A stretch of 54,706 nt of DNA, from positions 1 through 54,706 of IMG/VR virus record IMGVR_UViG_3300037419_001325, one strand, 5' to 3'. Positions 5,529-26,864 of the stretch are shown here, in pieces; the first letter of the stretch is position 1, and every line of letters begins with the position of its first letter. This DNA comes from a virus. Lineage: Duplodnaviria > Caudoviricetes. Position numbers and translations under genes: made by a program. The notes under the pieces are model-generated. The model was not told the origin of the DNA. It did no database searches and saw nothing but the letters and a program-made list of their open reading frames with translations.

Positions 5529-5568
5529 GTCCAGCTCCTCTGGATAGGTGCCAGCTTGTTCTGGCGAT
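5529..5568 (-). ncRNA. Two-hairpin leader copy 1 (no obvious promoter)
   Basis: ATC-GCCAG-AACAAG-CTGGC-ACCTAT-CCAG-AGGAG-CTGG-AC-ATG. Confidence 0.7.
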
Positions 5569-5578
5569 GAATAGGGGG

Positions 5579-5776
5579 TCAGTAGTCGTAGCGGCTGTTG
5601 TCGAGCCATTCCCGGATCGCGTCACGCACTTCCTCGGGCAGGTCGGCGGCGCGTGGTGGACGATCGGCGGGCCGGTCCACGATGTTGTCCCAGCGTTGGA
5701 CCTCGATAGTCCACTTGCCGCAGTTGTCGCCAGGCAGGGACTCGTAGGTGACTTTGGTGGGCATGACGACGGTCAT
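5579..5776 (-). CDS. Hypothetical protein
   Basis: GAGGAG RBS, MTVVMPTK start. Confidence 0.65.
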   Translation of the reverse strand: MTVVMPTKVTYESLPGDNCGKWTIEVQRWDNIVDRPADRPPRAADLPEEVRDAIREWLDNSRYDY

Positions 5777-5778
5777 GT

Positions 5779-6039
5779 TCAGCTCCTCGGGGAGTATCGG
5801 GTGGGGAGTCCAGCAGCGCGACGCCACCACGACAGGTGGATAGCGCGCTTCGGCCAGATCAGCGACCGCAGCACCACAGCCGACCACAACAGGATTGTGG
5901 CGAGGGCGGGGTGGGCGTGGCTGGCGGCAGCGACTTCGGGGTCGGTGTCCTGGATGTAGTGCAGCTCGGGGGCGAGCATGGAAGCGTTCACCCCGTACCC
6001 GCACAGATAGACGGCGAGGGCCGCCCACAGCGGGGTCAC
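5779..6039 (-). CDS. Small membrane protein
   Basis: Two hydrophobic segments; GTGA overlap with upstream gene. Confidence 0.6.
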   Translation of the reverse strand: MTPLWAALAVYLCGYGVNASMLAPELHYIQDTDPEVAAASHAHPALATILLWSAVVLRSLIWPKRAIHLSWWRRAAGLPTRYSPRS

Positions 6040-6269
6040 AGGTTGCTCCCGTGGCCGGGGGCGCGGCAGTCGGGGCGCTCGCAGTCCGGGCAGTAGATGA
6101 TGGGGGAGGCTTCGTCACCGCAGTTGGGGCAGAACGCGATCCAGTCCTCACCGATCAGCCACAACGGGATAGCGCAGTTGAGGCAGCGGTGGGTGGGTTC
6201 ACGGTCGCCGCCGGTGGCGATGAGTCCGGTTGCGCCGTCGAGGGTTTCGCGGCAGATGGTGTGGGGCAT
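6036..6269 (-). CDS. Small Cys-rich zinc-finger-like protein
   Basis: CLNC, CPNC, CPDC motifs; first gene after promoter and leader. Confidence 0.7.
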   Translation of the reverse strand: MPHTICRETLDGATGLIATGGDREPTHRCLNCAIPLWLIGEDWIAFCPNCGDEASPIIYCPDCERPDCRAPGHGSNL

Positions 6270-6342
6270 TACCGGCCTTCCGGTTCGTGCCAGCTGTTCT
6301 GGCGATACGGTCGACTATACCAGCGAACGACTGTATAAACAA
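6270..6342 (-). promoter_or_regulatory. sigA-type promoter plus two-hairpin leader copy 2
   Basis: TTGTTT-N17-TATAGT then ATC-GCCAG-AACAG-CTGGC-ACGAA-CCGG-AAGG-CCGG-TA-ATG. Confidence 0.8.
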
Positions 6343-6363
6343 GCCTTCTGCTAGCGCGCCTAG

Positions 6364-6675
6364 CTAGCTTTCCGAATCCCAACGCCCCAACACACCAACC
6401 AGATACGAACCCGCCGGCCACAAACCGAACCCCATCCACCACGGCAGATGCGCCACCAACGCGGTCGGGAACGCCAGGGCCAGGCACACCCACCAGCCGA
6501 AACACCACGGGCAGTGGACCAGGAAGGTGACCATGGAGCCGGGCCCGTACTGGCGTATAGCGGCGTTGCGGATCGGGTCACCGATCTTGTCCACCACCAC
6601 GATCCGGGTCAGTCGGGCGGCGGCGAGCACATAGACGGCGAGGGTGAGCAGGGTTGCGAGAGTGCTGTGTGGCAT
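6364..6675 (-). CDS. DUF1360-like membrane protein
   Basis: RLTRIVVVDKIGDPIR...LVHCPWC signature, hydrophobic helices; own late-type promoter. Confidence 0.7.
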   Translation of the reverse strand: MPHSTLATLLTLAVYVLAAARLTRIVVVDKIGDPIRNAAIRQYGPGSMVTFLVHCPWCFGWWVCLALAFPTALVAHLPWWMGFGLWPAGSYLVGVLGRWDSES

Positions 6676-6683
6676 GGCCCGGC

Positions 6684-6704
6684 ACGGTATGCGCTGGGGA
6701 TGCA
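6684..6704 (-). promoter_or_regulatory. Late-type promoter motif copy 2
   Basis: TGCATCCC-N7-TACCGT, ATG 8 nt downstream. Confidence 0.7.
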
Positions 6705-6717
6705 GGAAGACGCAGGC

Positions 6718-7002
6718 TCAGCTGTCGAGCGCTCCCGGGGTGGCATCGGCGTCCACCACTACGGGGCCCTGTACGTGTCGGACGGTTTCGCCGCCTGTGG
6801 GGTACAAGCCGTCCGGGACCGTGGTCAGCACCGGCCATGCCTCGACTTCGATTCGCGTAAGGCGGCTTCCTGAGTTGTGGTCTGCCAGGCGTTCGGCGTA
6901 GGCGGTCGCAAGTCCGACGGTGTGGAATATGCCGCGCGTAACCCTGTTGTCGCCGTCACCCTCGTCCTCTATGACGGCGTAGACGGTCTGGTTGTTGGCC
7001 AT
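6718..7002 (-). CDS. Hypothetical protein
   Basis: MANNQTVYAV start. Confidence 0.65.
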   Translation of the reverse strand: MANNQTVYAVIEDEGDGDNRVTRGIFHTVGLATAYAERLADHNSGSRLTRIEVEAWPVLTTVPDGLYPTGGETVRHVQGPVVVDADATPGALDS

Positions 7003-7028
7003 GGTGTAAGTCTCTCGCAATCGATGAA

Positions 7029-7057
7029 GGCCCGCCCCGAACAATGCGGGGCGGGTC
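7029..7057 (-). terminator. Intergenic hairpin
   Basis: CCCGCCCCG-N7-CGGGGCGGG. Confidence 0.55.
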
Positions 7058-7073
7058 TCGCGGTGGAGTGCAA

Positions 7074-7457
7074 TCACTGAGCCTCGGCAGCTTCCTGGTC
7101 GGCGTCGCAGCCGGGGCAGGAATCGGTCAGGTAGTAATCGTGCGGGCACAACGTCACCGAGGCGAGCCGCCGACCGCGACCGCTGATGAAGTAGTCGGGA
7201 TACGCCCGGATGTCATCCTTGACGATCGGTCGGGCCAGGACCTCGGCGGGCGGTGCGGGGATCGTCTTGTGCCGCTCGAAGTTCGCGCGCACTTCGCCGA
7301 TGGTCCAGTCGCCGAGCGGCACGTTGCAGGTGACGCACTGGGCTCGGACGCGGGTGCGTCCGAACAGGATGCCTGGCCGTGTGATGAGCACGCAATCGTC
7401 GTTCAGGCGTGTGGCCAGGCGGGTGATGTCATCCTGATTGGGAGTGGGTTCGGTCAT
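7074..7457 (-). CDS. Hypothetical protein with Cys motifs (behind leader)
   Basis: CVTC, CPH, CPGC; ATG directly after leader. Confidence 0.75.
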   Translation of the reverse strand: MTEPTPNQDDITRLATRLNDDCVLITRPGILFGRTRVRAQCVTCNVPLGDWTIGEVRANFERHKTIPAPPAEVLARPIVKDDIRAYPDYFISGRGRRLASVTLCPHDYYLTDSCPGCDADQEAAEAQ

Positions 7458-7530
7458 GTCCGGCCTTCCGGTTGATGCCAGCTGATCTGGCGATAACGTC
7501 GACTATACCAGCACGGGACTGTACCGTCAA
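7458..7530 (-). promoter_or_regulatory. sigA-type promoter plus two-hairpin leader copy 3
   Basis: TTGACG-N17-TATAGT (-35 overlaps TerL stop); GCCAG-ATCAG-CTGGC, CCGG-AAGG-CCGG. Confidence 0.85.
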
Positions 7531-9086
7531 TGGATGCCATCAGGCATTTGGCCCCAGCTGCCAGGGTTGCGGGACGCCACAGTCTGCCCACCACCCGCCA
7601 GCTCGTCATACACGATCGTTCCGCCAGCCACCCGATCCGGTTGGTGTTGGCCCTCGAACCAGCGGATAGCGTGCGCCTCCATCGTCGCCAACCGATGCTG
7701 CACCACCCGCGCCCGACCATTCGACGTAGCGTGACGGAACCCTGTCGACCGGATCAGCGCGTTACCCTGCCGCTTCCACGGCCGAATATGGAACGGGCGA
7801 GATGCCGGTACCGGGATGTTGTCGACATAGCCGCCGTTCGTGGCGGCTTCAGTGGCGAGGTCTTCATACGCGCGTTTCAGCAGCCGATCGTAAGCGACCG
7901 CAGCGGAATAGGCTTCGTACACCAGATCGGTGGCGCCGGTTTTCAGTGCGAGCAGGCAGGCGCGGCGCGGCCATTCGGCTGAGGAGTATTGGCCGGACCA
8001 GTCATCGGTGAGGACCACTATCCCGTCAGCGGTGAGACCGCCGGCGATGATGCCCGCTTCGTCGCCTTGCCCTGTTTCGGCGGGGTCGACACCAACGATC
8101 CGCCGATAGAACGGGGGGACTGTTTCGAGGCGGTAGGTGTCGAACCAGGCGGCGTTGAACAGTCCACCATCGGCGGGGGTGGGGGAGCCTTGGTACATGC
8201 TGGACCAGACGCGGGCGGGTTTGGTGGCGCGGATGTGTTCCCAGTCGGTTCGGCCGCGCGGGTTCTCCAAATGCACGCCAGGCGCGCGGCCGAGGGAGTC
8301 GAGGACGCCGTGTTCGGCGATGGCGGGGAAGTTGAGGACCCGCCACCGTCCGGGTTCCTGTTCCATCAGGTAGGCGTGCGCGTCCTGCTCATTCCAACGC
8401 GTGCCGATCATGATGCAGGGCGCGTCCGGGCCGAGGCGTTGAGATGCGACGGTGTCCCACCACAGATTCACCCGCCGGCGTTCGGCAGGGGAATCGGCAG
8501 CCAGCATGCCTGCATAGAGGTCATCGAGGATCATGCAATCGGCTGGCCGGCCAGGCAGTGCGGTGCCTACGCCCGCTGCGAGGATGCCGCCGCGGTGCCC
8601 CGACAGTTGCCAGCGTGCGCCTGCCGACTTGTCGCCGATACCCAACCCGAGGCGGTCGGGCAGCGGGTGGCCAGTCATCGCGTCGCGGGCGCCGGTGCCG
8701 AACGTGCGGAGGATGGTGCGGATCTGCTCCGAATGGGTGCGGGCCAGGTCCTCGGAATGGGTGGCGACGATGATCCGCCAATCCGGATGCAACTGGAGCG
8801 CCCGCACCGCCCCCCACACCGCGGTCCGTAGCGACTTCCCGGTCTGGGATGGTTTGGAGATCATCAGACGCGCAGCCGGGGTGGAGAACGCCCACTCCAG
8901 CGCGTCATCGATCATGCGGAGGTCGGCGGTTTGCACGGTGGTGGGGTCGAGTGCTTGCGCGAGAGAGCCGGCGGATGGGTAGGTGCGGGCGATCTGGACC
9001 CTGGTGAGGTTTTGTCGCGCCCACGCGGTGAACGCGGCTCGCTCACCGGGCGGTAGCTTCGCCGCCCGCGCCCACACATCAGTCAT
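7527..9086 (-). CDS. terL: Terminase large subunit
   Basis: Walker A PSQTGKS, Walker B MILDD, coupling GTRW, RNase H-like IVGVDPA nuclease domain. Confidence 0.92.
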   Translation of the reverse strand: MTDVWARAAKLPPGERAAFTAWARQNLTRVQIARTYPSAGSLAQALDPTTVQTADLRMIDDALEWAFSTPAARLMISKPSQTGKSLRTAVWGAVRALQLHPDWRIIVATHSEDLARTHSEQIRTILRTFGTGARDAMTGHPLPDRLGLGIGDKSAGARWQLSGHRGGILAAGVGTALPGRPADCMILDDLYAGMLAADSPAERRRVNLWWDTVASQRLGPDAPCIMIGTRWNEQDAHAYLMEQEPGRWRVLNFPAIAEHGVLDSLGRAPGVHLENPRGRTDWEHIRATKPARVWSSMYQGSPTPADGGLFNAAWFDTYRLETVPPFYRRIVGVDPAETGQGDEAGIIAGGLTADGIVVLTDDWSGQYSSAEWPRRACLLALKTGATDLVYEAYSAAVAYDRLLKRAYEDLATEAATNGGYVDNIPVPASRPFHIRPWKRQGNALIRSTGFRHATSNGRARVVQHRLATMEAHAIRWFEGQHQPDRVAGGTIVYDELAGGGQTVASRNPGSWGQMPDGIH

Positions 9087-9089
9087 AGG

Positions 9090-9491
9090 TCAGCCCTGCG
9101 CCCACTCAGGCCGGTAATCCGGGTGATCAGACCACACTGCGGCGATATCGCGGTACATCAGATCGTCCGTGTACGCCCCGGTCTCTCGGCCGATGTAGCC
9201 GAGGTCGCTGGCGCGGTCACGCTCGTACTCCCCAACCTCCTTGGCGTGTCCCAGCATGGCGCGGAGCATGGCGCATTGCTGGAGTACGCGGGCGGGATCG
9301 TGGCGCGCCATATGGTGCGCCCACCCCAGCGGGACGACTTTCCCGATGAGTTCCGGGCGATCTTCCGACGTCCACAGGTTCCAGCCGTCGACTTGCCAGC
9401 GGTCGGCGCCGGGCGCACTGGTCCGGCCCGCCTGGCGGGCAATTGTCTCGTCCTCGTCCAGGCGGGCGCGGATGAAGTCCACTATGTTCAC
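9090..9491 (-). CDS. DUF6221-like protein
   Basis: FIRARLDEDE...ARHDPARVL...WSDHPDYRPEW signature. Confidence 0.75.
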   Translation of the reverse strand: MNIVDFIRARLDEDETIARQAGRTSAPGADRWQVDGWNLWTSEDRPELIGKVVPLGWAHHMARHDPARVLQQCAMLRAMLGHAKEVGEYERDRASDLGYIGRETGAYTDDLMYRDIAAVWSDHPDYRPEWAQG

Positions 9492-9494
9492 GGT

Positions 9495-9761
9495 TCAGCC
9501 CTCATTCCAGTTCTCGGCCACGTGCTCCTCGAGGTGGGCTTGCGCGAGCCGATCCATCTCGACCAAACCCCGCAAACGAGTAGCGCCCAACACCTTGTCG
9601 TGCCGCCATTCCATCGGCAGCAGCCAGTCACACCCGGCGTGCGGGCAGCCCTTCGCGGAGTGCACATACTCGCCTGGCTGTAGGGGTGCGTCGAGGTCGC
9701 CAAAACCGTGGCGGACCATGTCTGCGGCGGCCTGGTTGATGTAGTCGTGGAGGTCGGCCAC
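9495..9761 (-). CDS. Hypothetical protein
   Basis: Tightly packed operon ORF. Confidence 0.65.
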   Translation of the reverse strand: MADLHDYINQAAADMVRHGFGDLDAPLQPGEYVHSAKGCPHAGCDWLLPMEWRHDKVLGATRLRGLVEMDRLAQAHLEEHVAENWNEG

Positions 9762-9764
9762 AGG

Positions 9765-9953
9765 TCAGCCCTCCCGTCGATCCACGACGAAATTGCCATC
9801 CTCGAGCAGTCCGAGGTACGCCCGGATTTCGGGGGCGTCAGCCGAGACCGGCGGGGTGTCGGGGAACTCGATACGGCCCATGTCACTGCGCCACCCGGAC
9901 CACTGCCTGCCGTGCTCGTCGGTGAACTCCATACGCTCGATATCGGACATCAC
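9765..9953 (-). CDS. Hypothetical protein
   Basis: Tightly packed operon ORF. Confidence 0.6.
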   Translation of the reverse strand: MMSDIERMEFTDEHGRQWSGWRSDMGRIEFPDTPPVSADAPEIRAYLGLLEDGNFVVDRREG

Positions 9954-9959
9954 TCACCC

Positions 9960-10373
9960 TCAGTTGTCGAACCAGAACACGATGCGGGTCGCCGCTTGCT
10001 CGCCGAGCAACCTCAGCCGGTCCAGCTCGGCGAAGTACGCGTCCCCCAGGAACTCCCGGTACGTCAACGCATCGGGTGAGGGCGGCTGACAAGCCGCGTC
10101 GTAGTCGAATCCCGTCAGCTCCTTCAGCGACAGCCACGACACGCTGTGCCCATCCGAACCCCACGCCTCCACCTGGGCGCGCACCTGGTCCGACACGTCA
10201 TCCGGTAGGCCGCGAGGTTCCGCGATCGGCTGAATGTCGGTGTAGTTGCGCACGCCAGCGAGCCACGCGAACAGGTTGTAGTTCCGGAAGTCGAACAGCT
10301 CGAAGTGCGGCACCGACTCCCAGCGGCCGGACGGCGTCTGGCACTCGATGGTGGTGTGGATGTCGCAACCCAT
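9960..10373 (-). CDS. Conserved phage protein (MGCDIH...WFDN family)
   Basis: MGCDIH, RNYNLFAWLAGVRN, PRGLP, HSVSWL, RIVFWFDN. Confidence 0.75.
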   Translation of the reverse strand: MGCDIHTTIECQTPSGRWESVPHFELFDFRNYNLFAWLAGVRNYTDIQPIAEPRGLPDDVSDQVRAQVEAWGSDGHSVSWLSLKELTGFDYDAACQPPSPDALTYREFLGDAYFAELDRLRLLGEQAATRIVFWFDN

Positions 10374-10663
10374 CAGCCCTCCCCGTACGGATCGTTTCGG
10401 GACTTGCTGTCGATCCTGTCGAAACAGGTCGGGCACATCTGCCCACCTCGGCCTACATGACCCTCACGGCATATCTGACACAACCGAGGCGGGATCTCCA
10501 CCAGCTCGCCACCGGTGACCTTCCAACAGTCACGGGTACCGTCCGGGTGGTCGACGGTGAGGATGTGGCCGTTGAGTCCGTCCAGGGGTGGGCGGTCGGT
10601 GAAGGTGTCGCGTTGGACCCAGTCGACAGACCAGGTAGCCCATGGGTGTGCGGTATCGGCCAT
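10373..10663 (-). CDS. Hypothetical protein, C-terminal Zn finger
   Basis: CQIC...CPTC; TGATG coupling. Confidence 0.65.
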   Translation of the reverse strand: MADTAHPWATWSVDWVQRDTFTDRPPLDGLNGHILTVDHPDGTRDCWKVTGGELVEIPPRLCQICREGHVGRGGQMCPTCFDRIDSKSRNDPYGEG

Positions 10664-11013
10664 CAGTTGTCCTTGTCGTCTCGCGTCAGCGTCTCGCCTC
10701 CGAGCGCGTTGCTGATGGCTGCATTCAGGTCAGCCAAGCGAGCCTCTGCGGCGGCCACCTCGTCCTTAAGCCTCTCGTTGGTCAGCGCCAGGCGCGTCTG
10801 TTCGCTACGAAGTTTCTGCGTCTCTGATCGGAGCTCAGCCTGGCTCAACTGTTCGATGTCGAGATAGGCGTCACTGCTCCAATCGACCGTTCTGGCACGA
10901 ATCGGCGTGAACACCAACTGATCATCGGAGACGACCAGGACGAAACCGCGATCGTCCGTCAGCTCGTCGATCGCGGCACACAATTGGCGCTTCATATCGT
11001 CACGAAGACTCAT
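10663..11013 (-). CDS. Hypothetical coiled-coil protein
   Basis: Heptad-rich C-terminal half; TGATG coupling. Confidence 0.65.
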   Translation of the reverse strand: MSLRDDMKRQLCAAIDELTDDRGFVLVVSDDQLVFTPIRARTVDWSSDAYLDIEQLSQAELRSETQKLRSEQTRLALTNERLKDEVAAAEARLADLNAAISNALGGETLTRDDKDN

Positions 11014-11387
11014 CAGTCGTCCTTGTCGTCTTCCGGAAACACGGGTTCTATCCGCGGGTCACGCCGCATCCCCTCCGCCACAATCCGCTGCCACCACCTG
11101 TTCGGAGGCAACTCGTCCTTCCGGGTACGCCACACCCGAACTCGAACCTTGTCCCCGCCCTCGGGCACGGTCGCCATGAACTCGGCCACTTCACGATCGA
11201 ACCGTTCGAACAGGGCCTCGATCTCCGCCCAAATACCTGTCGGGATCGGGTCGCGCCCGGATTCCCACGACTGGTACGTGTTCGGGCGGACACCCAGCAT
11301 TTCCGCCATATCCACCTGCTCCAGGCCCAAGTATCGGCGGGATGCGGTCAATCGGCCGGCGCGTCCGTGTTCGCGTGCGGTGGGCAT
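11013..11387 (-). CDS. HTH protein of Aca2/YdiL (DUF1870)-like family
   Basis: RRYLGLEQVDMAEMLGVRPNTYQSWESGRDPIP HTH followed by VRVRVWRT...WWQRIVAE segment matching DUF1870 layout; GAAAGGGAG RBS. Confidence 0.7.
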   Translation of the reverse strand: MPTAREHGRAGRLTASRRYLGLEQVDMAEMLGVRPNTYQSWESGRDPIPTGIWAEIEALFERFDREVAEFMATVPEGGDKVRVRVWRTRKDELPPNRWWQRIVAEGMRRDPRIEPVFPEDDKDD

Positions 11388-11485
11388 AGACTCCCTTTCG
11401 TCCAGCACGGCCGCTGCTCGACCGTGCTGGGCACCATGATCACACGCTCTGCGGAGTGATCGTGGGGTGAGGGAGCGGCGTGGGG

Positions 11486-11857
11486 TCACGCGGCGATCCG
11501 GGTGGGCATGTCCACGCGGTCAGCGGTGTCCGCCAGGTGGGGGTGGACGAACCGCAGGTAGTTGCGGCACACCTTCACCGTGATGGTCTCGAACTCGTCG
11601 GTGTTCGCGGACATGAGCAGGGTGTTGATGTAGTCGCCTGCGATGCCACCGGCCAGGGTGCGGTCGGTGGTGAGGTAGCAGCCCTCTTCCCAGTCGTAGG
11701 TGTCCCACTGGACCTCGACAGCGCCGGGCTGTCCGGTCTCCTCGCACATGGCGTTGTCCCAACCGGTGTTGGTTACCTCGATGCGGATGCGCTCATCGGC
11801 TTGGATGCCCAGCGCTTCGGCGATCGCGGCGGCGGGGGTGGCGATGAAAGTGGTCAT
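11486..11857 (-). CDS. Small acidic protein upstream of Aca2-like gene (anti-defence candidate)
   Basis: 123 aa, D/E-rich, first gene behind promoter and leader. Confidence 0.75.
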   Translation of the reverse strand: MTTFIATPAAAIAEALGIQADERIRIEVTNTGWDNAMCEETGQPGAVEVQWDTYDWEEGCYLTTDRTLAGGIAGDYINTLLMSANTDEFETITVKVCRNYLRFVHPHLADTADRVDMPTRIAA

Positions 11858-11932
11858 GTCCGGCTCCTCCGGTGTTGTGCCAGCTGGTCTGGCGATACGG
11901 TCGACTATACATGCGAGTGATGGTGTTGTAAA
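11858..11932 (-). promoter_or_regulatory. sigA-type promoter plus two-hairpin leader copy 4
   Basis: TTTACA-N17-TATAGT; GCCAG-ACCAG-CTGGC, CCGG-AGGAG-CCGG-AC-ATG. Confidence 0.85.
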
Positions 11933-11978
11933 GCGAAACAGCCGCCCAACCATGATCGGTTGAGCGGCTGCCTGGGGG

Positions 11979-12203
11979 TTACGCTTCGCCCCAGTCGTAG
12001 CCCCGCTGGTACGCCTCATCTGCGACATCCTCGGGGACTCCGACACGTTCGGCGGTGGCGAAGGCTCGTTCGATCGCGGCCACCGTGTCCGGGGTGTCGG
12101 GGTAACCGTCTTCGGCTTCCTTCCGGGCCAGGCTGCCGATGCTGACCAGCGCGGAAATGGCGGCATCGAGGGTGGTTGCGGGGGCGGGGGTGATGGTGAG
12201 CAT
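11979..12203 (-). CDS. Small acidic hypothetical protein (behind leader)
   Basis: 74 aa, ATG directly after leader. Confidence 0.75.
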   Translation of the reverse strand: MLTITPAPATTLDAAISALVSIGSLARKEAEDGYPDTPDTVAAIERAFATAERVGVPEDVADEAYQRGYDWGEA

Positions 12204-12275
12204 GTCCGGCCTTCCGGTTGATGCCAGCTGTTCTGGCGATACGCACACTATACCAGCAAGCGACTGTACCGTCTA
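12204..12275 (-). promoter_or_regulatory. sigA-type promoter plus two-hairpin leader copy 5
   Basis: TAGACG-N17-TATAGT; GCCAG-AACAG-CTGGC, CCGG-AAGG-CCGG. Confidence 0.85.
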
Positions 12276-15041: not shown

Positions 15042-15232
15042 AGTGCCACCGCCAGGGAGAACAGGGTCACGGCGACGATCCAGGTGACGACGGTGGCGGC
15101 GAGTCCGACAGCGACCGCGAGCGGCAGGACGAAGATCACGGTGAACAGCGACAGGCCCATCAGGAGCAGGGGGATTTCGACGCTGATGCGAGCCCGCGCT
15201 ACGGTGAATCGGTTGGGGTGTTTGATGTGCAT
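15038..15232 (-). CDS. Small membrane protein (behind leader)
   Basis: MHIKHPNRF start, long hydrophobic C-terminus. Confidence 0.7.
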   Translation of the reverse strand: MHIKHPNRFTVARARISVEIPLLLMGLSLFTVIFVLPLAVAVGLAATVVTWIVAVTLFSLAVAL

Positions 15233-15307
15233 TCCGGCTCTTTTCCGGTTGGTGACGGCTGTTCCGTCGATGTGGGTAACGATACCAGCGGGTGACTGTG
15301 TTGTCAC
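15233..15307 (-). promoter_or_regulatory. sigA-type promoter plus two-hairpin leader copy 6 (covariant)
   Basis: GTGACA-N17-TATCGT; ATC-GACGG-AACAG-CCGTC-ACCAA-CCGG-AAAAGAG-CCGG-A-ATG. Confidence 0.8.
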
Positions 15308-20341: not shown

Positions 20342-20343
20342 GT

Positions 20344-20703: not shown

Positions 20704-21034
20704 TGGCGGCTTCCTCGGGTATGTGCAGGATGGTCGCTACGCCTTGGCGGGCCACCTGGGATGACGTCCACAGCAGGTACAGATCCATTGCCCGCCACAG
20801 CGCGCCCTTCGAGTTCCGTTGCTTGTGGCAGGCGACTCCGTTCACCAGGATCAGCGAGCCGAGCGGCAACGCCCGGAGTTCTTCGGCGGTCTCGATGCGG
20901 CGGGGTGGCGGGCACCAGCCCTCGGCGATGATCGCGGCGGCGGCGTCCTCCAGGTCCTCCCGGTCGTTGTCGATCAGCTGCGGATCGGCCGCGCGCTGGA
21001 TGATGTCGGCGAGCTGGTCGCGCAGATCAGGCAT
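20696..21034 (-). CDS. Hypothetical protein (paralog of 13438..13944)
   Basis: RDQLADII...EGWCPPPRRIE...ATILHIPEEA. Confidence 0.65.
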   Translation of the reverse strand: MPDLRDQLADIIQRAADPQLIDNDREDLEDAAAAIIAEGWCPPPRRIETAEELRALPLGSLILVNGVACHKQRNSKGALWRAMDLYLLWTSSQVARQGVATILHIPEEAANE

Positions 21035-21638
21035 CGCTGACCTTCCGCAGTGCGTACACGGCCACCCCCGGCAGAGCCGGACGCCGATACTCCGCCCTCT
21101 CCACAGCCTGACCACGAGTCGGATACGCCACATGCTCCAACCCGCACACACGGTCCTGATCGTTCAGGAAACCGGTCACATACCCGGCAGGGAACGGTTG
21201 GGAGGCTTCGAGTTTGATCGGCTCGGCGTGCGGTACCGGCTCCGAACTGCCCACGTCGCCGCGGGAGTGACATGGCCCCACCTCGTGCTCGCTGAGGACG
21301 CATGGGCCGTCGTCGGTCAGCTTGCCGCATTTCAGGTGGAAGATGTTTCGCACGACACCAAGCAGGTTCGCCCACGTGTCCGCGATGGAGTTGCGCTCCA
21401 TGTAGCCGTCGAACTCCTCGACAGGACAGCCCAATGCCATCCAGAGATCGAGAGCGAATCCAATCTGCACCGAGAGGGCCACGCGTCGGCTCTGCTCCTC
21501 CAGCTCCGCGATACGGGCTCGGGCGTCGATCAGTTCGGCCGCCATCGATCGCTCGTTCGCGTTGGTGCACACATACTCGTCGTCGCGGAGCTGCCGCAGG
21601 CGCGCGTCCGTGAGCGGTTCGGGTGTCTGGTCAGTCAC
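21027..21638 (-). CDS. Hypothetical mosaic protein
   Basis: GAGGAG RBS, GTG; ARARIAELE coiled segment. Confidence 0.65.
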   Translation of the reverse strand: MTDQTPEPLTDARLRQLRDDEYVCTNANERSMAAELIDARARIAELEEQSRRVALSVQIGFALDLWMALGCPVEEFDGYMERNSIADTWANLLGVVRNIFHLKCGKLTDDGPCVLSEHEVGPCHSRGDVGSSEPVPHAEPIKLEASQPFPAGYVTGFLNDQDRVCGLEHVAYPTRGQAVERAEYRRPALPGVAVYALRKVSDA

Positions 21639-22251
21639 GGTAGGGCTCCTCGTATGTTCCGTGTACGACCATCCGCAACTCCTCGATGGCGACATGAAGC
21701 CCTTCGGCGAGGCCGTACTCACCGGCGGCGCGATGCTCGGACTCCTCGGCCGCCCACTTTTCGAACAAGTCAGTGACCCTGCTGATGGTCTGGATTGCGG
21801 CGTGGAGAGCGTCTTGTTCGATCGCCCGGCCGGACTCCAGGCTGGTGATGCGGGCACGGGTGGCGGCCAGCTGGTCGTCACGTTCGGAGACGAGAGTCTG
21901 GGTCCCCCAGAGCTGCCCGGTGAGGACGTTGCGGTCGGCCCCCATGCAGTCGAGTGCTCGGCGGATGTAGTCACGCTCGGCAGCGAACCAGGCGGCCCAC
22001 CGGCACGCCTCGCCGAAACGCTTGAGTGGTGGCTCAGGTGATTCCAACTCGGCGATACGAGCGCGGGCGGCTTCGAGCTGATCGAGCAGTTTCAGCACAC
22101 CAGCAGGACTGCCCGCTGCCAGCGACCAATCCAAATACTGGCCCTTGACCACGTCGCTGAGGTCGTTGACCGAGTCGCGGGCTACCTCGGTGACCCTGCG
22201 CCACTCGGCGAGCTGTTCGTCCGTGAACTGCTCGGATGCTTGATCAGGCAT
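21631..22251 (-). CDS. Ead/Ea22-like coiled-coil protein
   Basis: AAGSPAGVLKLLDQLEAARARIAELE resembles the Ea22-type motif. Confidence 0.5.
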   Translation of the reverse strand: MPDQASEQFTDEQLAEWRRVTEVARDSVNDLSDVVKGQYLDWSLAAGSPAGVLKLLDQLEAARARIAELESPEPPLKRFGEACRWAAWFAAERDYIRRALDCMGADRNVLTGQLWGTQTLVSERDDQLAATRARITSLESGRAIEQDALHAAIQTISRVTDLFEKWAAEESEHRAAGEYGLAEGLHVAIEELRMVVHGTYEEPYRD

Positions 22252-22651
22252 TGGTCTGCACTTCCGTGAGGATCGGCCAGTCCACCGTGGCATCCGGATG
22301 GCCTGGTTGAGGGATGGTGCCGTGATGCCGCCCTGCGTGACCGTTCGGCAGCTCGCACCAGACGGTGCGGCCAGGATCGTTGACCAGCACGCCCGTGGTC
22401 GAGGTTGTGGCTTGGCAGCGGACAGCGGCGACCGCTTGATCGCAGCCGTATTCGTCGCGGGCCCGGTAGCCCGCCTCGTAACCCGTCCGATACAGACCGA
22501 ACGCATACGACAAACACACGACAGTCGCCCCACCAACCACGATGTGCGGCCACGAAGTAGTGATCAGCAACAACACCGGGACACCGAACAACACCACCAG
22601 GAGAGCGGTGCCGGCGTAGCGGACGAAGACACCGGATTCGCGGCGCATCAT
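22244..22651 (-). CDS. Membrane protein with C-terminal Cys/His motif
   Basis: Two TM segments; CELPNGHAGRH. Confidence 0.6.
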   Translation of the reverse strand: MMRRESGVFVRYAGTALLVVLFGVPVLLLITTSWPHIVVGGATVVCLSYAFGLYRTGYEAGYRARDEYGCDQAVAAVRCQATTSTTGVLVNDPGRTVWCELPNGHAGRHHGTIPQPGHPDATVDWPILTEVQTNA

Positions 22652-23148
22652 GACGCCTCCCGCTTCGCAGCGCGCAGGCAGGCAGCACACTCGGCGCGAC
22701 CACCGACTATGTGCCACTGCGCGGACCACGTGTAGGCGCGTGCCCGACCACAGACCGCTGCGACCTCCTCGCGGCGCCCGAACCCGCTGTGCTGACCCTT
22801 CTCGATGACCAGCGGGACCAGGTGCAGGACGCGACCGTCGTGCGTTCCGGCCCAGGTGTGACCTTCACGCTCCGGACGCGGCTCCACTCCCCACTTCGGG
22901 GTGTGAGCGCAGTTGTCGGCGATCCGGGTGTCCGAGTTCCGCTTGATCTGCACGGTGTAACCGGCCTTCTCGTCGCGGCGGCGGACCGCCTTCGATCCGA
23001 AGAAACCTTCTCGTGCTTCCTCTTCCGAACTTGTGTATCGGCAGGTAGCCCAAGCGCATTCGCACCCACAGGGGGCGATGAGTACCCAGGTGCATTCCTT
23101 GGCCGGGACAGGTTGTCCGTCGACTTCGAAATAAGTAGTGACAGCCAT
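22648..23148 (-). CDS. Cys-rich hypothetical protein
   Basis: PCGCEC, CAAC. Confidence 0.65.
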   Translation of the reverse strand: MAVTTYFEVDGQPVPAKECTWVLIAPCGCECAWATCRYTSSEEEAREGFFGSKAVRRRDEKAGYTVQIKRNSDTRIADNCAHTPKWGVEPRPEREGHTWAGTHDGRVLHLVPLVIEKGQHSGFGRREEVAAVCGRARAYTWSAQWHIVGGRAECAACLRAAKREAS

Positions 23149-23153
23149 TGCGA

Positions 23154-23570
23154 TCAGCCCTCGGCCGGGATGAGGGTGACGTCGTCCAACTTGATGTATC
23201 GGACGTCGGGGCCGATGGTGACGTAGTCGTTGCCGGTGATGAAGTCGTTCGCGATCCAACCCGGATCGCCCGGTTCGGCGCCGATACGCGACGTCGTTTC
23301 CCAGTAGCCGCCGAAGCTGTTGCGGGGGATGGCCTGATAGGTGCCGGGCGCGATCTGCTCGGGGACCTTCCAACGTCCATTGGTGGACAGCGGGTTCGCG
23401 GGCGGGGAAGTGTGGCGGATCGCGGGCTGCTCGGCGCGGGCGGGGACGAGGCCCGCGGTGGTGGACAGGCTGGCGGGGGAGCTGAGGTTGTTGTCGGGGT
23501 CGCAGGCGGTGACACCGAGAGCGAGGACAGCGGCGGCGATAACGGGGATGGCGCGGCGCAGGATGCGCAT
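23154..23570 (-). CDS. Lipoprotein
   Basis: Signal peptide with lipobox VTAC; GRWKVPEQIAPGTY...YWE domain common in actinobacterial lipoproteins. Confidence 0.75.
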   Translation of the reverse strand: MRILRRAIPVIAAAVLALGVTACDPDNNLSSPASLSTTAGLVPARAEQPAIRHTSPPANPLSTNGRWKVPEQIAPGTYQAIPRNSFGGYWETTSRIGAEPGDPGWIANDFITGNDYVTIGPDVRYIKLDDVTLIPAEG

Positions 23571-23628
23571 AGTCAATTGCCTTTCGGAGATCTCGGGACG
23601 TGCGGGGCAGCAGGGGCCCATCGCGGGG

Positions 23629-23973
23629 TTAGGAGTTGGCTTCGGTGTCGATCCGGGCGGCGTCCTGCACCATCACGATCGCGGCGCGAACGTCGTCGTT
23701 GCTGATCGCGTCGTCGCCCTTGTTGACGAGGATGTGTTCGAGGATCTGGTCGGTGTCGCAGGTGTAGGGGAGGTTGGTGTTCCAGTCCTCGTCCTCCACC
23801 GCGAAGCCGATGCCGATGGTCAGGAACTTGGGGAACCCGACAACGGCCTGGCGGTCGCTGAGCTTCACGCGATACGCCCAGTACGACTCATCGACTGCGG
23901 GCGTGATCAGCACCGGCCCGACTTGCTTCGTCTCGTTGTCCTGGTTGCGGCGTTCGAGCACGAGATCGGTCAT
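23629..23973 (-). CDS. Conserved hypothetical phage protein
   Basis: GFPKFLTIGIGFA...DWNTNLPY. Confidence 0.65.
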   Translation of the reverse strand: MTDLVLERRNQDNETKQVGPVLITPAVDESYWAYRVKLSDRQAVVGFPKFLTIGIGFAVEDEDWNTNLPYTCDTDQILEHILVNKGDDAISNDDVRAAIVMVQDAARIDTEANS

Positions 23974-24104
23974 CAGTAGTTCGCTTTCTGGTCGTTGTCG
24001 TGGGGGTCGCACCAGGTGGTGACTTCGCCTGTGCCGCCGCAGAACCGGCAGCCCTCACCGCGGCAGTGCTCGCACAAGCCCCAGTGCTGGATACGGGCGG
24101 GCAT
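23973..24104 (-). CDS. 43-aa DnaJ-like Zn-finger micro-protein
   Basis: CEHCRGEGCRFCGGTG; TGATG coupling. Confidence 0.55.
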   Translation of the reverse strand: MPARIQHWGLCEHCRGEGCRFCGGTGEVTTWCDPHDNDQKANY

Positions 24105-24352
24105 CAGCGGGCCGAGTTGCGGAAAGCGTCGGAGACGATCGCCATCAGATGGTTGGCGCGGGCCACGATCGCCTCGGCGTCGGCTTCCGCGATGTCGCTC
24201 AGACCGGGCCGACGCCAGGCAGCCGACGATTCGAACCGGGTCGCGAGGTGGTCGGTCACCAGGTGCCGGGCGAGCATGTCGATGGTCGCGACACGATCGT
24301 GCGCCATTGCGTGGGTGACGTATGCGCCGATATCGGCGGTGGGTGAACTCAA
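24104..24352 (-). CDS. Hypothetical protein (behind leader, TTG start)
   Basis: AGGAG RBS inside leader hairpin 2. Confidence 0.7.
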   Translation of the reverse strand: MSSPTADIGAYVTHAMAHDRVATIDMLARHLVTDHLATRFESSAAWRRPGLSDIAEADAEAIVARANHLMAIVSDAFRNSAR

Positions 24353-24427
24353 TTCCGGCTCCTATCCGGGTGATGCCAGCTGATCTGGCGATGGCTTGAA
24401 TATACCTGCGTTCGCAGGTGCGGTCAA
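24353..24427 (-). promoter_or_regulatory. sigA-type promoter plus two-hairpin leader copy 7
   Basis: TTGACC-N17-TATATT; spacer holds IR ACCTGCG-TT-CGCAGGT; GCCAG-ATCAG-CTGGC, CCGG-ATAGGAG-CCGG. Confidence 0.85.
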
Positions 24428-24469
24428 ACAGTGCGGCGTGTCGCCGAAATATCGACGTTCACACCGCTT

Positions 24470-25294
24470 TCACGCTGACAACTCGTCGCGACCATCGTCC
24501 ATGCTTACGCTCGTATCCGGTCGGTACCGCACCACGTGCCGTTTGCTGATGCCGAGCCGCACCGCTATCTGTTCGATGGACAGGCCGGCAGCGGTGAGGC
24601 GCGCGACTTCCTCCCGGCGGACGTCGGCGCGCTCCCGGAACCCGTTGCCCTTCGCTACACCGGACGGTTTCACGATCACGGTCGGATCATCGATGTCGTG
24701 GCCTTCCCAATCCAGCGGGGGAGCCCACCCGTGCTTGCGTGCACGGTTGCGGGCCTGCGTGCTGGACTGGCCTTTCGGGGCTGGGGTGGCGGACAACTGT
24801 TCGTACAGGTCGTGGATGGCCGACCAGGTGTCCCAGTTGATGTGCCTGCGCGGCGGGGCGGGGGCGGCGATTTTCGTGATCACCGCGGCGGTCAACGGGC
24901 AGCGCAGGGACAGGACATGCCAGGACCAGCCGAGGGCGTGGAGCGCGCGCAGGCGACGTACGGCGCCGATAGCGGATACGACTTGTTGGCGGGGGTTGGG
25001 GTGCCAGTCGACGGCGCGGATGGCGGTGGCTTGCCGGATGCGGGTGGTGTCCCATTTCCCGGTGCTGATGTTGAGCACGCAGTGGTAGCGGACCCCGGCG
25101 TCGCGGGCGATGGAGGACATGGGGAGCTGGTGGTCGACCAGGTATTGGATGTGTTCCCGGATCGGGGTGGAGTCGACGTAACCGGGCATCCCGGCGAACC
25201 GGGTTTTCATCTCGTATTTGGCGTGTTTGCGGCCTTTCGGGGTGGCGTACTGCGATTTCACGGCAGCGGACGGGGTGGCGATTCTCAATGGCAC
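24470..25294 (-). CDS. Multi-HTH DNA-binding protein
   Basis: RRLRALHALGW, GWAPPLDW, C-terminal HTH GLSIEQIAVRLGISKRHVVRY. Confidence 0.75.
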   Translation of the reverse strand: MPLRIATPSAAVKSQYATPKGRKHAKYEMKTRFAGMPGYVDSTPIREHIQYLVDHQLPMSSIARDAGVRYHCVLNISTGKWDTTRIRQATAIRAVDWHPNPRQQVVSAIGAVRRLRALHALGWSWHVLSLRCPLTAAVITKIAAPAPPRRHINWDTWSAIHDLYEQLSATPAPKGQSSTQARNRARKHGWAPPLDWEGHDIDDPTVIVKPSGVAKGNGFRERADVRREEVARLTAAGLSIEQIAVRLGISKRHVVRYRPDTSVSMDDGRDELSA

Positions 25295-25311
25295 TTCGGA
25301 TTCTCCGGTGG

Positions 25312-25803
25312 TCAGAACAGGGGCAGGGTGTCGATGTGGGCGAGGGGCCGGCGCCGGGTGCGGGGTGGGTGGACGACGATCACCGAGGGGGGACAGGGCT
25401 GGTCGGCGAGTCGCCGCATTTCGGCCAACTGTCCGATGAGCCGGTTTTCGGAGTCGCGGAGCCGGTCGCGGTCCGCCATGAGCTGGTTCATGGCGTCGGG
25501 GGTGACGCGGGAGGCACGAACCTTGCTCTCCGCCTTCTCCACTGCCGCCTCGGCGGCCAGCAACTGGGTGGTGAGGACGGCTACGGGTTCGGTGCGGGCC
25601 ATTTGGATGGTGCGGCGGGACACATGGAGCCATGCGGCGATGGTGTCGGTGGTGTGACCGCGGTGGGTGAGGTGAGCGACCAGCCATGCCCGGTCGCTGG
25701 CGGGGAGTTTCACGCCCTGGACACGCCCAGCTATCGCGGCGTCGATCAAGCATTCATCCGGGTTCCAACGGGGCTGGTGCATGGGCAGGACGGTCACGGT
25801 CAC
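25312..25803 (-). CDS. HTH plus coiled-coil protein
   Basis: RGHTTDTIAAWLHVSRRTIQ HTH. Confidence 0.65.
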   Translation of the reverse strand: MTVTVLPMHQPRWNPDECLIDAAIAGRVQGVKLPASDRAWLVAHLTHRGHTTDTIAAWLHVSRRTIQMARTEPVAVLTTQLLAAEAAVEKAESKVRASRVTPDAMNQLMADRDRLRDSENRLIGQLAEMRRLADQPCPPSVIVVHPPRTRRRPLAHIDTLPLF

Positions 25804-26813
25804 CTCCGGGTAGCGGTTACGGGGGCTGTACGGGCCATGGCCGGGCCAGAAAGGTCCGGCGGAGGGGTGGCGCTGTATCGGCGCGGCTTCGACGCGAGAG
25901 CGGCACGTACCTTGGCGGCGCCGCGGCGCGCGGTCTCCGCTGCGTGCGGGTCGTGGAGGCACTTCACCGCGGGAGCGCTGAATCCGTCGTCGTCGCACAT
26001 GCCGCACGCGGCGATCTCGTCGGCTTCGGCGCGGTGCTTCGCGGCCAGCTGTTCACGTTCGGCGGCGGCGCGGGCGTGGGCGGCGCGTTCCTCCCATGCT
26101 TTGCGTTCCAACCGGTTCGCCTTGCATCGACCGCACGCGACATCACCGGGATTGCCGGGATGGTCCGGGCACCACGGAGCCGGAGCCTCGTCGGTGGTTT
26201 CGATCGGATCTGCAGCGAGGGGGGTGGGGTTATCCACAGGCTCGGCGAGCGGCAAGTGAGGTACCCCGGAAACGCAACCCCCCTCTAGTTCAACTTGGTC
26301 TAGTTCCCCTGGGTTTAGTTTGAGGGACAAATCTGTCCCCCGGGGGGAGACAGATTTGTCGCCACCCCGGGGGACAGATTTGTCTCCCCCTTCACTCGGG
26401 GCCACGTCAGAAGGGGCGACAGATTTGTCCCCCCCTCCCACAAACGAAGCCGGCGGAAGGGACCGCAGGGTGTACAGCGAGCTCGTCTGCTCTGGATGGG
26501 TAGCGGACTTCTCGAACGAATACGACGGATTCGAGCCCGCGCTCTTCCACCGCAGACGCACCGTCACCGCACCCGCGGCCACGAGGTCCCGCATCGCACG
26601 ATCCAGTGTCTTCACGCTCCACCGGCACTCCTCGGCCAGCGTCTTCCGTTTACACCAGGACGTGCCAGAGGCGTTGTCGGCGTGCTGGCGCAGCACCACA
26701 TACAGGCGCAGGGCACGGTCAGTGATCAACTCGCACTGCGTCACCCACAGCGGAATCATCGTGAATCGCACATCGACGGAGATGCCGATCTCGTCGTCGT
26801 GGGTGTGGCTCAT
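25800..26813 (-). CDS. Replication initiator (winged-HTH Rep-like)
   Basis: FTMIP...ALRLYVVL...KRKTLAEECRWSVKTLDRAMRDL; internal iterons; C-terminal CPDH/CGRC/CGMCDDDG. Confidence 0.75.
   Translation of the reverse strand: MSHTHDDEIGISVDVRFTMIPLWVTQCELITDRALRLYVVLRQHADNASGTSWCKRKTLAEECRWSVKTLDRAMRDLVAAGAVTVRLRWKSAGSNPSYSFEKSATHPEQTSSLYTLRSLPPASFVGGGDKSVAPSDVAPSEGGDKSVPRGGDKSVSPRGTDLSLKLNPGELDQVELEGGCVSGVPHLPLAEPVDNPTPLAADPIETTDEAPAPWCPDHPGNPGDVACGRCKANRLERKAWEERAAHARAAAEREQLAAKHRAEADEIAACGMCDDDGFSAPAVKCLHDPHAAETARRGAAKVRAALASKPRRYSATPPPDLSGPAMARTAPVTATRR
26230..26429. repeat. Putative replication origin inside rep
   Basis: DnaA box TTATCCACA 26230-26238; TAGTT x3 at 15-bp spacing 26286-26320; GACAGATTTGTC at 26349, 26373, 26418 and inverted at 26326. 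Confidence 0.75.
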
Positions 26814-26864
26814 TTCCGGCTCCAATCCGGTTGGTGCCAGCTGACTGGCGATGACTTGATGATA
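26814..26864 (-). promoter_or_regulatory. Two-hairpin leader copy 8 with -10 TATCAT (weak -35)
   Basis: GCCAG-TCAG-CTGGC, CCGG-ATTGGAG-CCGG-AA-ATG. Confidence 0.75.

Follow-up and report, generated by a model that had tools for sequence, protein, structure and literature searches.

The window analysed here is a complete virus record of 54,706 bp (IMG/VR record IMGVR_UViG_3300037419_001325; Duplodnaviria, Caudoviricetes), from a soil phage of about 65% G+C with nearly all of its genes on the minus strand. It carries exactly eight copies of a leader element in which two short hairpins stand directly before a start codon, the second holding the Shine-Dalgarno (SD) sequence in its loop. The leader is a real repeated element under selection for its two hairpins: in 50 copies from the window and four related genomes, substitutions in one arm of a stem are matched in the other. 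The structure appears to form in RNA rather than in single-stranded DNA. The reading we prefer, at a probability of roughly 0.4, is that the leader serves as a 5' untranslated region (5'-UTR) RNA operator for a dimeric helix-turn-helix (HTH) protein of the Aca2/YdiL type, encoded behind one of the copies, and so places a genome-wide set of units under translational control.

Eight leader copies in the window

Each window copy begins with ATC and continues through a 5-bp stem 1 with a 4-6-nt loop, a C/A-rich linker of 5-6 nt, a 4-bp stem 2 and a further 1-2 nt to the start codon, which is ATG in seven cases and TTG in one. Stem 1 reads GCCAG/CTGGC in seven of the eight and GACGG/CCGTC at 15233-15271; stem 2 reads CCGG/CCGG in seven and CCAG/CTGG at 5529-5568. 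Loop 2 is an SD-like purine run throughout (AAGG, AGGAG, AAAAGAG, ATAGGAG or ATTGGAG). A sequence-only reading made earlier had placed eight minus-strand copies of this anatomy in the window, one of them ahead of the replication initiator gene. Re-reading all eight sites bore this out, and copy 8 does precede 25800-26813, a PHROG replication initiation gene.

The 19-nt pattern of stem 1 has five exact matches in the window against 0.18 expected, and the total of six matches that includes one with three mismatches was reached by none of 100 shuffled sequences. A sequence-only profile finds the eight copies at E<=1.2e-8 and its next best match in the window at E=0.36. The covariance model proposed as a check likewise recovers all eight, at 52.7-63.9 bits, with the next window match at 10.6 bits. 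Since both models leave a wide gap after the eighth match, the number of copies in the window is eight. They are as follows, all on the minus strand.

Copy 1, 5526..5568 (-): 63.9 bits; ATC, GCCAG/CTGGC hairpin, UCCAG-AGGAG-CUGGA hairpin, ATG; no visible promoter; ahead of 5043-5528 (161 aa).
Copy 2, 6267..6306 (-): 52.7 bits; -10 TGgTATAGT at about 6314-6322, weak -35; ahead of 6036-6269 (77 aa).
Copy 3, 7455..7494 (-): 58 bits; promoter TTGACG-17-TATAGT (7502-7530); directly 3' of the large terminase gene; ahead of 7074-7457 (127 aa).
Copy 4, 11855..11896 (-): 62.7 bits; promoter TTTACA-17-TATAGT (11904-11932); ahead of 11486-11857 (123 aa), then the HTH gene.
Copy 5, 12201..12240 (-): 58.7 bits; promoter TAGACG-17-TATAGT (12247-12275); ahead of 11979-12203 (74 aa).
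Copy 6, 15230..15271 (-): 53.9 bits; compensatory stem GACGG/CCGTC; promoter GTGACA-17-TATCGT (15279-15307); ahead of 15038-15232 (64 aa, hydrophobic-looking by eye).
Copy 7, 24350..24392 (-): 56.8 bits; promoter TTGACC-17-TATATT (24399-24427); TTG start; ahead of 24104-24352 (82 aa).
Copy 8, 26811..26852 (-): 52.7 bits; only a -10-like TATCAT upstream; ahead of the replication initiator, 25800-26813.

Seven of the eight leader-headed genes match no Pfam or PHROG family; no anti-CRISPR (acr) library was searched. Rfam 15 yields no match over the whole window at gathering thresholds and nothing relevant at E<=10 over 5400-15400; thus no Rfam family matches the leader, in keeping with the novelty claimed for it.

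Two fragments resemble part of the element. At 5774-5802 (-), in the start region of the gene after 5779-6039, GAGGAGCTGAACATG corresponds to the leader's 3' half, with SD, 3' arm and spacer but neither the 5' arm nor hairpin 1, and may be a decayed copy. At 29452-29467 (-), CCGGATTGGGAGCCGG forms a stem-2-like clamp around an SD-like run, lacking hairpin 1 and a directly following start codon.

Compensatory changes in fifty copies

Four related (pro)phage genomes add 42 copies, for n = 50 in five genomes. Their terminase identity to the window is 77%, falling to 51-52% across the set.

G001: 63.7-kb IMG/VR contig; 8 copies, one on the plus strand.
G002: prophage on contig 8 of an Actinomycetota metagenome-assembled genome (MAG); 12 copies, 56.5-86.3 kb.
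G541: 48-kb provirus; 13 copies; found solely by alignment of the HTH protein.
G542: 27.8-kb provirus fragment; 9 copies.

A script scan that required pairing supplied 24 of the 50, and the demand for pairing is a source of bias in those 24. A sequence-only profile built from them added four in G002, and the covariance model supplied the 22 in G541 and G542.

RNAfold predicts both hairpins in 50 of 50 copies. When the predicted fold is used to define the stem arms, Watson-Crick pairing in helix 1 extends to 250 of 250 cells (one base pair in one copy being a cell) despite seven stem types, GCCAG, GACGG, GAGGG, GGCAG, GCCGG, GACAG and UGGGG, each with its exact complement. Helix 2 (CCGG/CCGG or CCAG/CUGG) is Watson-Crick in 198 of 200 cells, two copies being weakened. 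When the 3' arms were shuffled among the 47 distinct copies, the observed pairing was reached in none of 10,000 trials for either helix. The 28 copies of the three closest genomes give the same picture for helix 1, which is 100% paired with 11 cells changed on both sides; its covariation score is 0.276 against 0.104 after shuffling (0/500), and partners slid out of register pair in at most 37% of cases. A figure of 79% pairing for helix 2 in that count was discarded as an artefact, the covariance-model alignment having shifted stem 2 in 10 rows.

The same holds at orthologous sites. Before the gene 4 orthologues (genes numbered by leader copy) the five genomes have stems GCCAG, GCCAG, GGCAG, GACGG and GAGGG, each with the matching 3' arm, and the leaders of genes 3, 4, 6, 7 and 8 in the window differ from those of their G002 orthologues in one or both stems, always pairwise. 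The variable positions of stem 1 (pairs 2, 3 and 4) always change on both arms. Compensatory change on this scale favours a single-stranded (RNA) structure over a plain DNA operator, and the selected structure proposed from two variant stems in the window alone is thereby confirmed in five genomes.

Leader stability is compensated as well: of the 11 copies with the weaker CCAG/CTGG form of stem 2, 10 lengthen it by a U-A pair, which 3 of the 38 CCGG copies have. Minimum free energy folds of the window copies contain both hairpins in seven of eight when 10 nt of coding sequence are appended, and in all eight when the folded segment runs from 2 nt upstream to the start codon. The SD lies inside loop 2 in 49 of the 50 copies, the exception being one G542 copy that has no SD. 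Across all genomes the linker is 5-8 nt and the start codon 1-6 nt past stem 2. The leader always has the orientation of its gene, including three plus-strand copies in the relatives.

There is also a constraint on sequence beyond pairing. Among the 47 distinct copies pair 5 (G-C) is invariant and pair 1 varies once; loop 1 nearly always begins with A, and CAC follows stem 1 in most copies. Each genome has a dominant stem type, GCCAG in the window, G001 and G002, GACGG in G541 and GAGGG in G542.

Promoters

A promoter consensus scan of both strands over 4500-36000 finds seven promoter-like sites, five of them directly upstream of copies 3, 4, 5, 6 and 7. These promoters are sigma-70-like and their -10 ends 7 nt ahead of ATC, which is probably the +1 position. 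Of the other three, inspected by eye, copy 2 shows an extended -10 and a poor -35, copy 8 a -10-like hexamer only and copy 1 nothing; scan and eye together agree with the earlier description of six copies with a promoter, one with a -10 only and one with none.

As we read the sequences upstream, a -10 is missing from about 7 of the 28 copies that the three closest genomes contain. Several promoter-less copies stand right behind GC-rich hairpins that look like terminators (56687, 66859 and 73535 in G002; 17785, 21559 and 23763 in G541). The promoter-less copies suggest that leader function is not tied to the 5' end of a transcript, in which case a 5'-end shield alone could not explain the leader.

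The G541 promoters (at the copies at 15247, 18541, 18827, 21357, 23404 and 36682) have a palindrome of their own, ACACAC-N4-6-GTGTGT, which separates TTGAC from the -10 (TATTGT). Its sequence is unrelated to that of the leader stems, and it may be a DNA operator in its own right. In G542, GTGTGTGT runs occupy the place of this palindrome.

An Aca2-like protein encoded behind the leader

The second gene of the operon behind copy 4 (11013..11387, minus strand) encodes a 124-aa HTH protein of the Aca2/YdiL type. It scores 26.8 bits against Pfam PF08965 (Aca2_YdiL; cut-off 23.8), and its best sequence match in the PDB is Aca2 itself (7ezy, E=6e-5). A Foldseek search with its model (predicted local distance difference test, pLDDT, 86.8) returns Aca2 chains and 1s4k as the top seven, with TM-scores normalised to the query (TMq) of 0.61-0.66 over 115-121 of 124 columns; ordinary HTH proteins align over only about 50-60. 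Modelled as a homodimer it scores 0.85 against 0.00 for the best control, with runs agreeing 100% and pLDDT 90. In calibration, the mark it passes was reached by 20 of 30 proteins whose solved structures are same-chain pairs and by 1 of 23 solved as single chains, and, as solved Aca2 dimers exist, the pass may reflect likeness to them.

In each of the five genomes an orthologue of this gene follows the same leader copy and the same small gene, so the earlier claim of an Aca2-like gene in the operon behind copy 4 holds across the lineage as far as position goes. G541 was located through the HTH protein alone and then proved to carry its 13 leader copies. The family label stands less firmly. The window protein passes PF08965, and both its best PDB match and its full-length fold match are Aca2, but of the four distinct orthologue sequences scanned from the lineage (the 99%-identical G001 copy was left out) it is the one that exceeds the cut-off, and the assignment to the Aca2 family is borderline.

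The published mechanism is as the sequence-only reading gave it: in the passages of the source on translational control, Aca2 dimers repress translation by binding two conserved 5'-UTR hairpins, thereby blocking the ribosome-binding site (RBS) (PMC13551039). The RNA motif is described there and in an earlier paper as beginning directly after the transcription start, in 'actino-' and 'proteo-' forms (PMC13551039, PMC6765145). The same passages allow for control of up to three operons and for intergenic sites, and report motifs ahead of several neighbouring operons (PMC13551039, PMC6765145). Like the Aca2 motif, the leader has two short hairpins just past a (here probable) transcription start, at a conserved distance from the RBS and start codon, and an Aca2/YdiL-fold HTH protein is encoded in an operon behind it. 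It differs in number, with 8-13 copies over about 21-30 kb where Aca2 has one to three neighbouring operons, and in targets, which include the replication initiator and no recognised anti-CRISPR, though again no acr library was searched. It differs also in having no promoter inverted repeat with the hairpin core, and in an HTH protein that is borderline by Pfam. How the leader compares with the consensus of the published actino- motif may bear directly on its novelty.

Hairpin cassettes in cultured actinophages

A tblastn search with the HTH protein matches 499 phage records, of which 475 belong to Mycobacterium phages; among the latter, the ones listed are mostly about 68-70 kb long, and we take them to be of the Cluster B type. 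The rest include Tsukamurella phage TPA2 and Gordonia phages. Mycobacterium phage Vincenzo, TPA2 and Gordonia phage Mariokart carry at least nine, seven and two cassettes, respectively, of one form: a TTGAC-type promoter is followed after 12-17 nt by a 5-6-bp G...G hairpin whose 5-nt loop begins with A, and then, some 6-10 nt further on, by the SD and ATG. In each of the three, one cassette heads the operon of the HTH homologue (30-35% identity to the window protein). In Vincenzo that cassette reads TTGACT-17-TAGTCT, hairpin GCGGG-ACUGA-CCCGC, AGGAG, ATG; in Mariokart it precedes the gp40-gp39 (HTH) operon, and one more lies elsewhere. The cassettes found with the hairpin GCGGG-A(C/A)NG(A/T)-CCCGC are these:

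Vincenzo (NC_028934): 72072-, 71188-, 69932-, 66793-, 63302-, 41101-, 18378-, 2292+, 5849+.
TPA2 (NC_015210): 58445+, 40125-, 38496-, 7530-, 2915-, 1977-, 1660-.

Unlike the window leader, the cassettes of Vincenzo, TPA2 and Mariokart have a single hairpin and do not enclose the SD, and the stem GCGGG/CCCGC is invariant within and between Vincenzo and TPA2 despite their different hosts. A repeat in the Vincenzo promoter, ACCCG/CGGGT, was considered as a core shared with the hairpin and rejected; it is an inside-out form of GCGGG/CCCGC. Chah and Bipper, which have HTH homologues, show no clear equivalent hairpin in their leaders. A literature search found no description of the Vincenzo, TPA2 and Mariokart cassettes, though one may exist all the same.

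The counts below come from a generic finder, which asks for a perfectly paired 5-bp G...G hairpin with a loop starting with A, then SD, then start codon.

Window: 7 sites, shuffled mean 0.7, HTH homologue present.
G001: 6 sites, shuffled mean 0.4, HTH homologue present.
G541: 12 sites, shuffled mean 0.8, HTH homologue present.
G542: 7 sites, shuffled mean 0.7, HTH homologue present.
Vincenzo: 13 sites, shuffled mean 1.1, HTH homologue present.
TPA2: 8 sites, shuffled mean 0.6, HTH homologue present.
Anaya (40.8 kb): 0 sites, shuffled mean 0.6, no HTH homologue.
L5 (first 50 kb): 0 sites, shuffled mean 0.4, no HTH homologue.
Giles (first 50 kb): 0 sites, shuffled mean 0.6, no HTH homologue.
Che9c (first 50 kb): 0 sites, shuffled mean 0.7, no HTH homologue.

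The finder was written after the positive genomes had been seen and the six positives amount to only three lineages; the association of HTH protein and cassette across phages is a lead, not proof.

The leader as an operator for the HTH protein

The leader would, on the reading we prefer, be a cis-regulatory 5'-leader RNA module reused at the head of at least eight units of transcription or translation, before the first gene of each. The module would begin about 3 nt after the probable transcription start with hairpin 1 (5 bp, consensus G-N-N-R-G, 4-6-nt loop starting with A), and would continue through the short C/A-rich linker into hairpin 2, whose 4-5 bp would present the SD in the loop and end 1-6 nt before the start codon. 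It would be the binding site of a dimeric regulator encoded by the phage. The best candidate for this ligand is the 11013-11387 protein, because Aca2 dimers are known to bind two 5'-UTR hairpins. With one HTH subunit on each hairpin the RBS would be covered or locked, and all leader-headed units would be repressed together; an Aca2-type circuit would thus have been extended beyond a single anti-CRISPR operon to a regulon that spans the genome. Both the HTH protein as ligand and repression as outcome are matters that we infer.

The small number of lineages behind the finder counts tells against this reading, and so do several other observations. There is no G-U pair in 450 cells, so that strand and RNA nature rest on orientation and position alone. 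Single-copy folding energies are modest, at -12.8 to -15.4 kcal/mol, with z = -0.6 to -2.7 against shuffles. The G542 and G541 orthologues score 23.2 and 19.5 with PF08965, both below 23.8, and those of G002, Vincenzo, Mariokart and Chah have no PF08965 match. The recognition helices of the window and G002 proteins differ, yet both genomes use GCCAG stems; conversely, several stem variants coexist in one genome, and a protein that strictly reads sequence would need to tolerate them. A promoter inverted repeat sharing the hairpin core, a hallmark of Aca2, was not seen by eye: the window has at most ACAG-N7-CTGG beside the -10, where the TG also belongs to an extended -10, and the G541 promoter repeat (ACACAC-N5-GTGTGT) is unrelated to the GACGG stems of that genome. 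Finally, the five genomes form one lineage, in which co-occurrence with the HTH gene could reflect shared ancestry. The regulon first proposed for the window thus keeps its selected structure, its replication initiator target and its Aca2-like gene behind copy 4, while the family assignment proves borderline and no promoter repeat with a shared core is evident.

Should the HTH protein bind the leaders, one small protein could shut off or time translation of 8-13 operons, including that of the replication initiator, a reach far wider than the one to three operons described for Aca2. A broader claim is that Aca2/YdiL-type HTH proteins are master translational regulators of promoter-proximal phage genes, acting on 5'-UTR hairpins behind nearly every strong promoter, and that the same logic operates in a large group of cultured actinophages; we regard this as doubtful. 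If true, it would make RNA binding by Aca2-like HTH proteins a general device for the timing of phage genes, beyond anti-CRISPR operons, and the hairpin that encloses the SD would be the first structural reading of motifs like the start-associated sequence (SAS) of Cluster K phages. Similar cassettes in isolated phages of Mycobacterium smegmatis, Tsukamurella and Gordonia open the idea to bench work, and the small genes behind the leaders become candidates for early host-takeover or anti-defence functions.

Alternative explanations

The copies could be mainly the by-product of a mobile promoter-leader cassette that shuffles genes. The PeSL stem-loop of T4-type phages is a terminator-like element upstream of a promoter. 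As with PeSL, repeated promoter and stem-loop units here border small variable genes, and some mosaic junctions fall at cassette edges; the leader hairpins differ in lying within the 5' leader, in enclosing the RBS and in covarying. At 5 of 8 copies, a block of homology shared by the window and G001 ends no more than 30 nt from a cassette edge; the figure for other gene starts is 8 of 33. Two blocks were lost to the collinearity filter of that count, and their ends, at 7543 and 11935, are at cassette edges too; the full block list adds the break at 7543, beside the copy 3 promoter. At copies 2, 3 and 8 G001 has kept the leader, but the window genes that follow it are missing there or exchanged for others, and RNA-library contigs of relatives (a single study, with short sides) have joints at cassette edges, 6707-7543 and 5571-5787. 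Still, phage mosaic junctions fall at gene boundaries anyway, 5/8 against 8/33 is a weak contrast, and mobility leaves both the compensatory changes and the stability compensation unexplained. We think it unlikely, though only mildly so, that mobility is the main reason for the copies. The cassette may also behave as a module border, which is compatible with regulation.

Two further observations concern these joints. One RNA-library form is without the copy 3 cassette (joint 6707-7543), like G001. At 29440-29500 G001 keeps the equivalent of window 26791-26852, that is, leader copy 8 and MSHTH (the first five codons of the initiator), and then continues into a different 165-aa gene; the recombination joint thus lies about 20 nt inside the coding sequence.

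The main rival to a dedicated regulator is that the leader works autonomously, with hairpin 1 (3 nt from the 5' end) shielding the mRNA from decay that depends on the 5' end and hairpin 2 keeping the SD single-stranded in its loop for a uniform rate of translation. Stem-loops at the 5' end can protect mRNA. The leader resembles lambda boxB/nut and ompA-type 5' stabiliser hairpins in having a 15-nt, 5-bp hairpin near the 5' end of early (here only putatively early) transcripts, and departs from them in its tight coupling to the SD and start codon, its many copies and the lack of a promoter at some of them. An autonomous leader fits the start of hairpin 1 at a fixed 10 nt after the -10 in promoter-linked copies and the near-constant place of the SD (loop 2 in 49/50), and the compensation by an extra U-A pair is what a purely structural role predicts. 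By our reading, however, the 7 or so of 28 promoter-less copies lie inside transcripts, where a 5'-end shield would need processing. Conservation of pairs 1 and 5, of the first base of the loop and of the CAC behind stem 1 goes past structural need, stem type is homogeneous within each genome, and the cassette type is found only in genomes with an HTH homologue (6/6 against 0/4). On balance we hold an autonomous leader to be rather unlikely.

The Cluster K SAS also speaks for an autonomous leader, being of the same form: in the account of its discovery GGGATAGGAGCCC is a G/C clamp around AGGAG, 3-7 nt before ATG (PMC3203893). Like the SAS, the leader is multi-copy, proximal to genes and of one orientation, with a G/C clamp around AGGAG a few nucleotides before a mostly ATG start; both often follow a SigA-like promoter and have a C/A-rich stretch ahead of the clamp. 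Copy 7 reads CGGATAGGAGCCG, two mismatches from the SAS consensus. A search for the 13-bp consensus (at most two mismatches, 3-9 bp before starts) gives this one match in the window against 1.5 expected, and 80 of 100 shuffles give at least one, so the window does not carry the SAS by sequence. The extended SAS (ESAS) is described as a 15-17-bp imperfect repeat overlapping the promoter, with departures judged not to support RNA pairing in the relevant section of the source (PMC3203893); the leader repeat, by contrast, is 5 bp, perfectly paired, downstream of the -10 and covarying. The right arm of Anaya, whose ESAS sites were inspected for comparison, has no HTH homologue and no hairpin-SD-start sites. 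The function of SAS and ESAS is still called unknown in the sections of the papers that deal with it (PMC3203893, PMC12699233, PMC11373665). The covariation reported here is comparative evidence that an SD-enclosing clamp such as that of the SAS, whose role has gone unexplained since 2011, works as a hairpin.

A different phage or host factor might bind the leader RNA, for example the HTH protein of 24470-25294 or some small protein. The structural and conservation evidence would apply to it equally, and this 274-aa HTH_23 protein, encoded just upstream of copy 7, is one of several further proteins that all the genomes conserve. These candidates have no RNA-binding precedent, however, and only the Aca2-like gene has a fixed place behind a leader copy in five of five genomes; another ligand appears improbable.

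Hairpin 1 could instead be an antitermination signal after each promoter, like boxB/nut or put (a likeness drawn from general knowledge of the boxB and put hairpins). Its 15 nt, 5-bp stem and 5-nt loop just downstream of promoters fit, as do the terminator-like GC-rich hairpins directly before several promoter-less copies in G002 and G541. A polymerase signal would have no need of so tight a coupling to SD and start codon, with 5-8 nt of linker and 1-6 nt between stem 2 and the start, however. No N-like protein was identified, and no boxA-like partner was noticed, though no search was aimed at one. Antitermination is quite improbable.

Least credible is a double-stranded DNA operator at stem 1, a palindrome spanning about +4 to +18 whose half-sites, 10 bp apart, would bind an HTH repressor dimer: the 5-bp arms and 5-bp spacer directly downstream of the -10, the seven identical window copies and the absence of G-U in 450 cells would suit it, but every stem 1 change is matched in the other arm, in seven stem types of which several occur within one genome, whereas positions that a repressor does not read would vary independently in each half-site and positions that it reads would call for several repressors; moreover, the leader is always co-oriented with its gene, its loop and flanks are asymmetric, promoter-less copies exist, and the repressor-like 407-aa protein (2177-3400) is only 26% identical in G001, where the elements are the same.

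Searches for further relatives

The window has no close relatives in the phage collection by megablast with 15 kb of it; blastn with 7 kb found short terminase fragments only, and the 76-nt promoter plus leader found no match at E<=1. Locus searches with single proteins (terminase, replication initiator) added no relatives. Scans by pattern were dominated by false leads. The stem 1 pattern picked out 116 stretches in the genome collection, nearly all lone chance matches, the real one being a single MAG contig, that of the G002 prophage. A 22-base pattern gave 56 metagenome loci, all of them weak with the covariance model, of which 12 reached E<=0.001 (best 26.1 bits), and no relative. Among 151 genomes of the family of G002, 97 had weak matches (up to 34.3 bits) and G002 alone had real copies. 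A second covariance model (R2) gave 30 matches at E<=1e-4, with two in G542 and none in G541, and is too narrow for distant relatives.

The three best outside matches are a single conserved host locus in the family of the MAG, ATCGACGGAC(G/C)AGCCGTCACC...CCGGGTAGCCGGG, at 29-34 bits with model R1; it matches no Rfam family.

RNA libraries from four root-metagenome runs of one study (X3-X6) contain contigs 90-99% like the window in all 30 depth bins (29 of 30 in X4); these contigs break at repeats and show neither transcription starts, strand nor level. They come from several relatives and cover window 4900-24800.

Other genes of the window

Genes identified in the window include those listed below. 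The window also encodes an endolysin, tail genes and an Ant-like protein; no tRNA genes were found in it.

2177-3400 (+): 407-aa 'transcriptional regulator' with an N-terminal HTH (phrog_5823, E=1.4e-98).
7527-9086 (-): large terminase.
24470-25294 (-): 274-aa protein, HTH_23 domain at the C-terminus; flanked by the replication initiator and leader copy 7.
25800-26813 (-): replication initiator, 337 aa (PHROG replication initiation, Pfam HTH_36).
32327-33634 (-): serine integrase.

In the left part of the record, the gene of the 407-aa regulator is alone among the large genes in lying on the plus strand. Its low identity to its counterpart in the otherwise close G001 would be expected of an immunity-type repressor with another specificity. 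The 274-aa protein, a second candidate for the regulator, is conserved at 42-55% identity in each of the four relatives. The terminase gene lies amid small genes, far from the tail and lysis genes at 36000-54615, which makes it probable that the record is circularly permuted or was cut at some arbitrary position.

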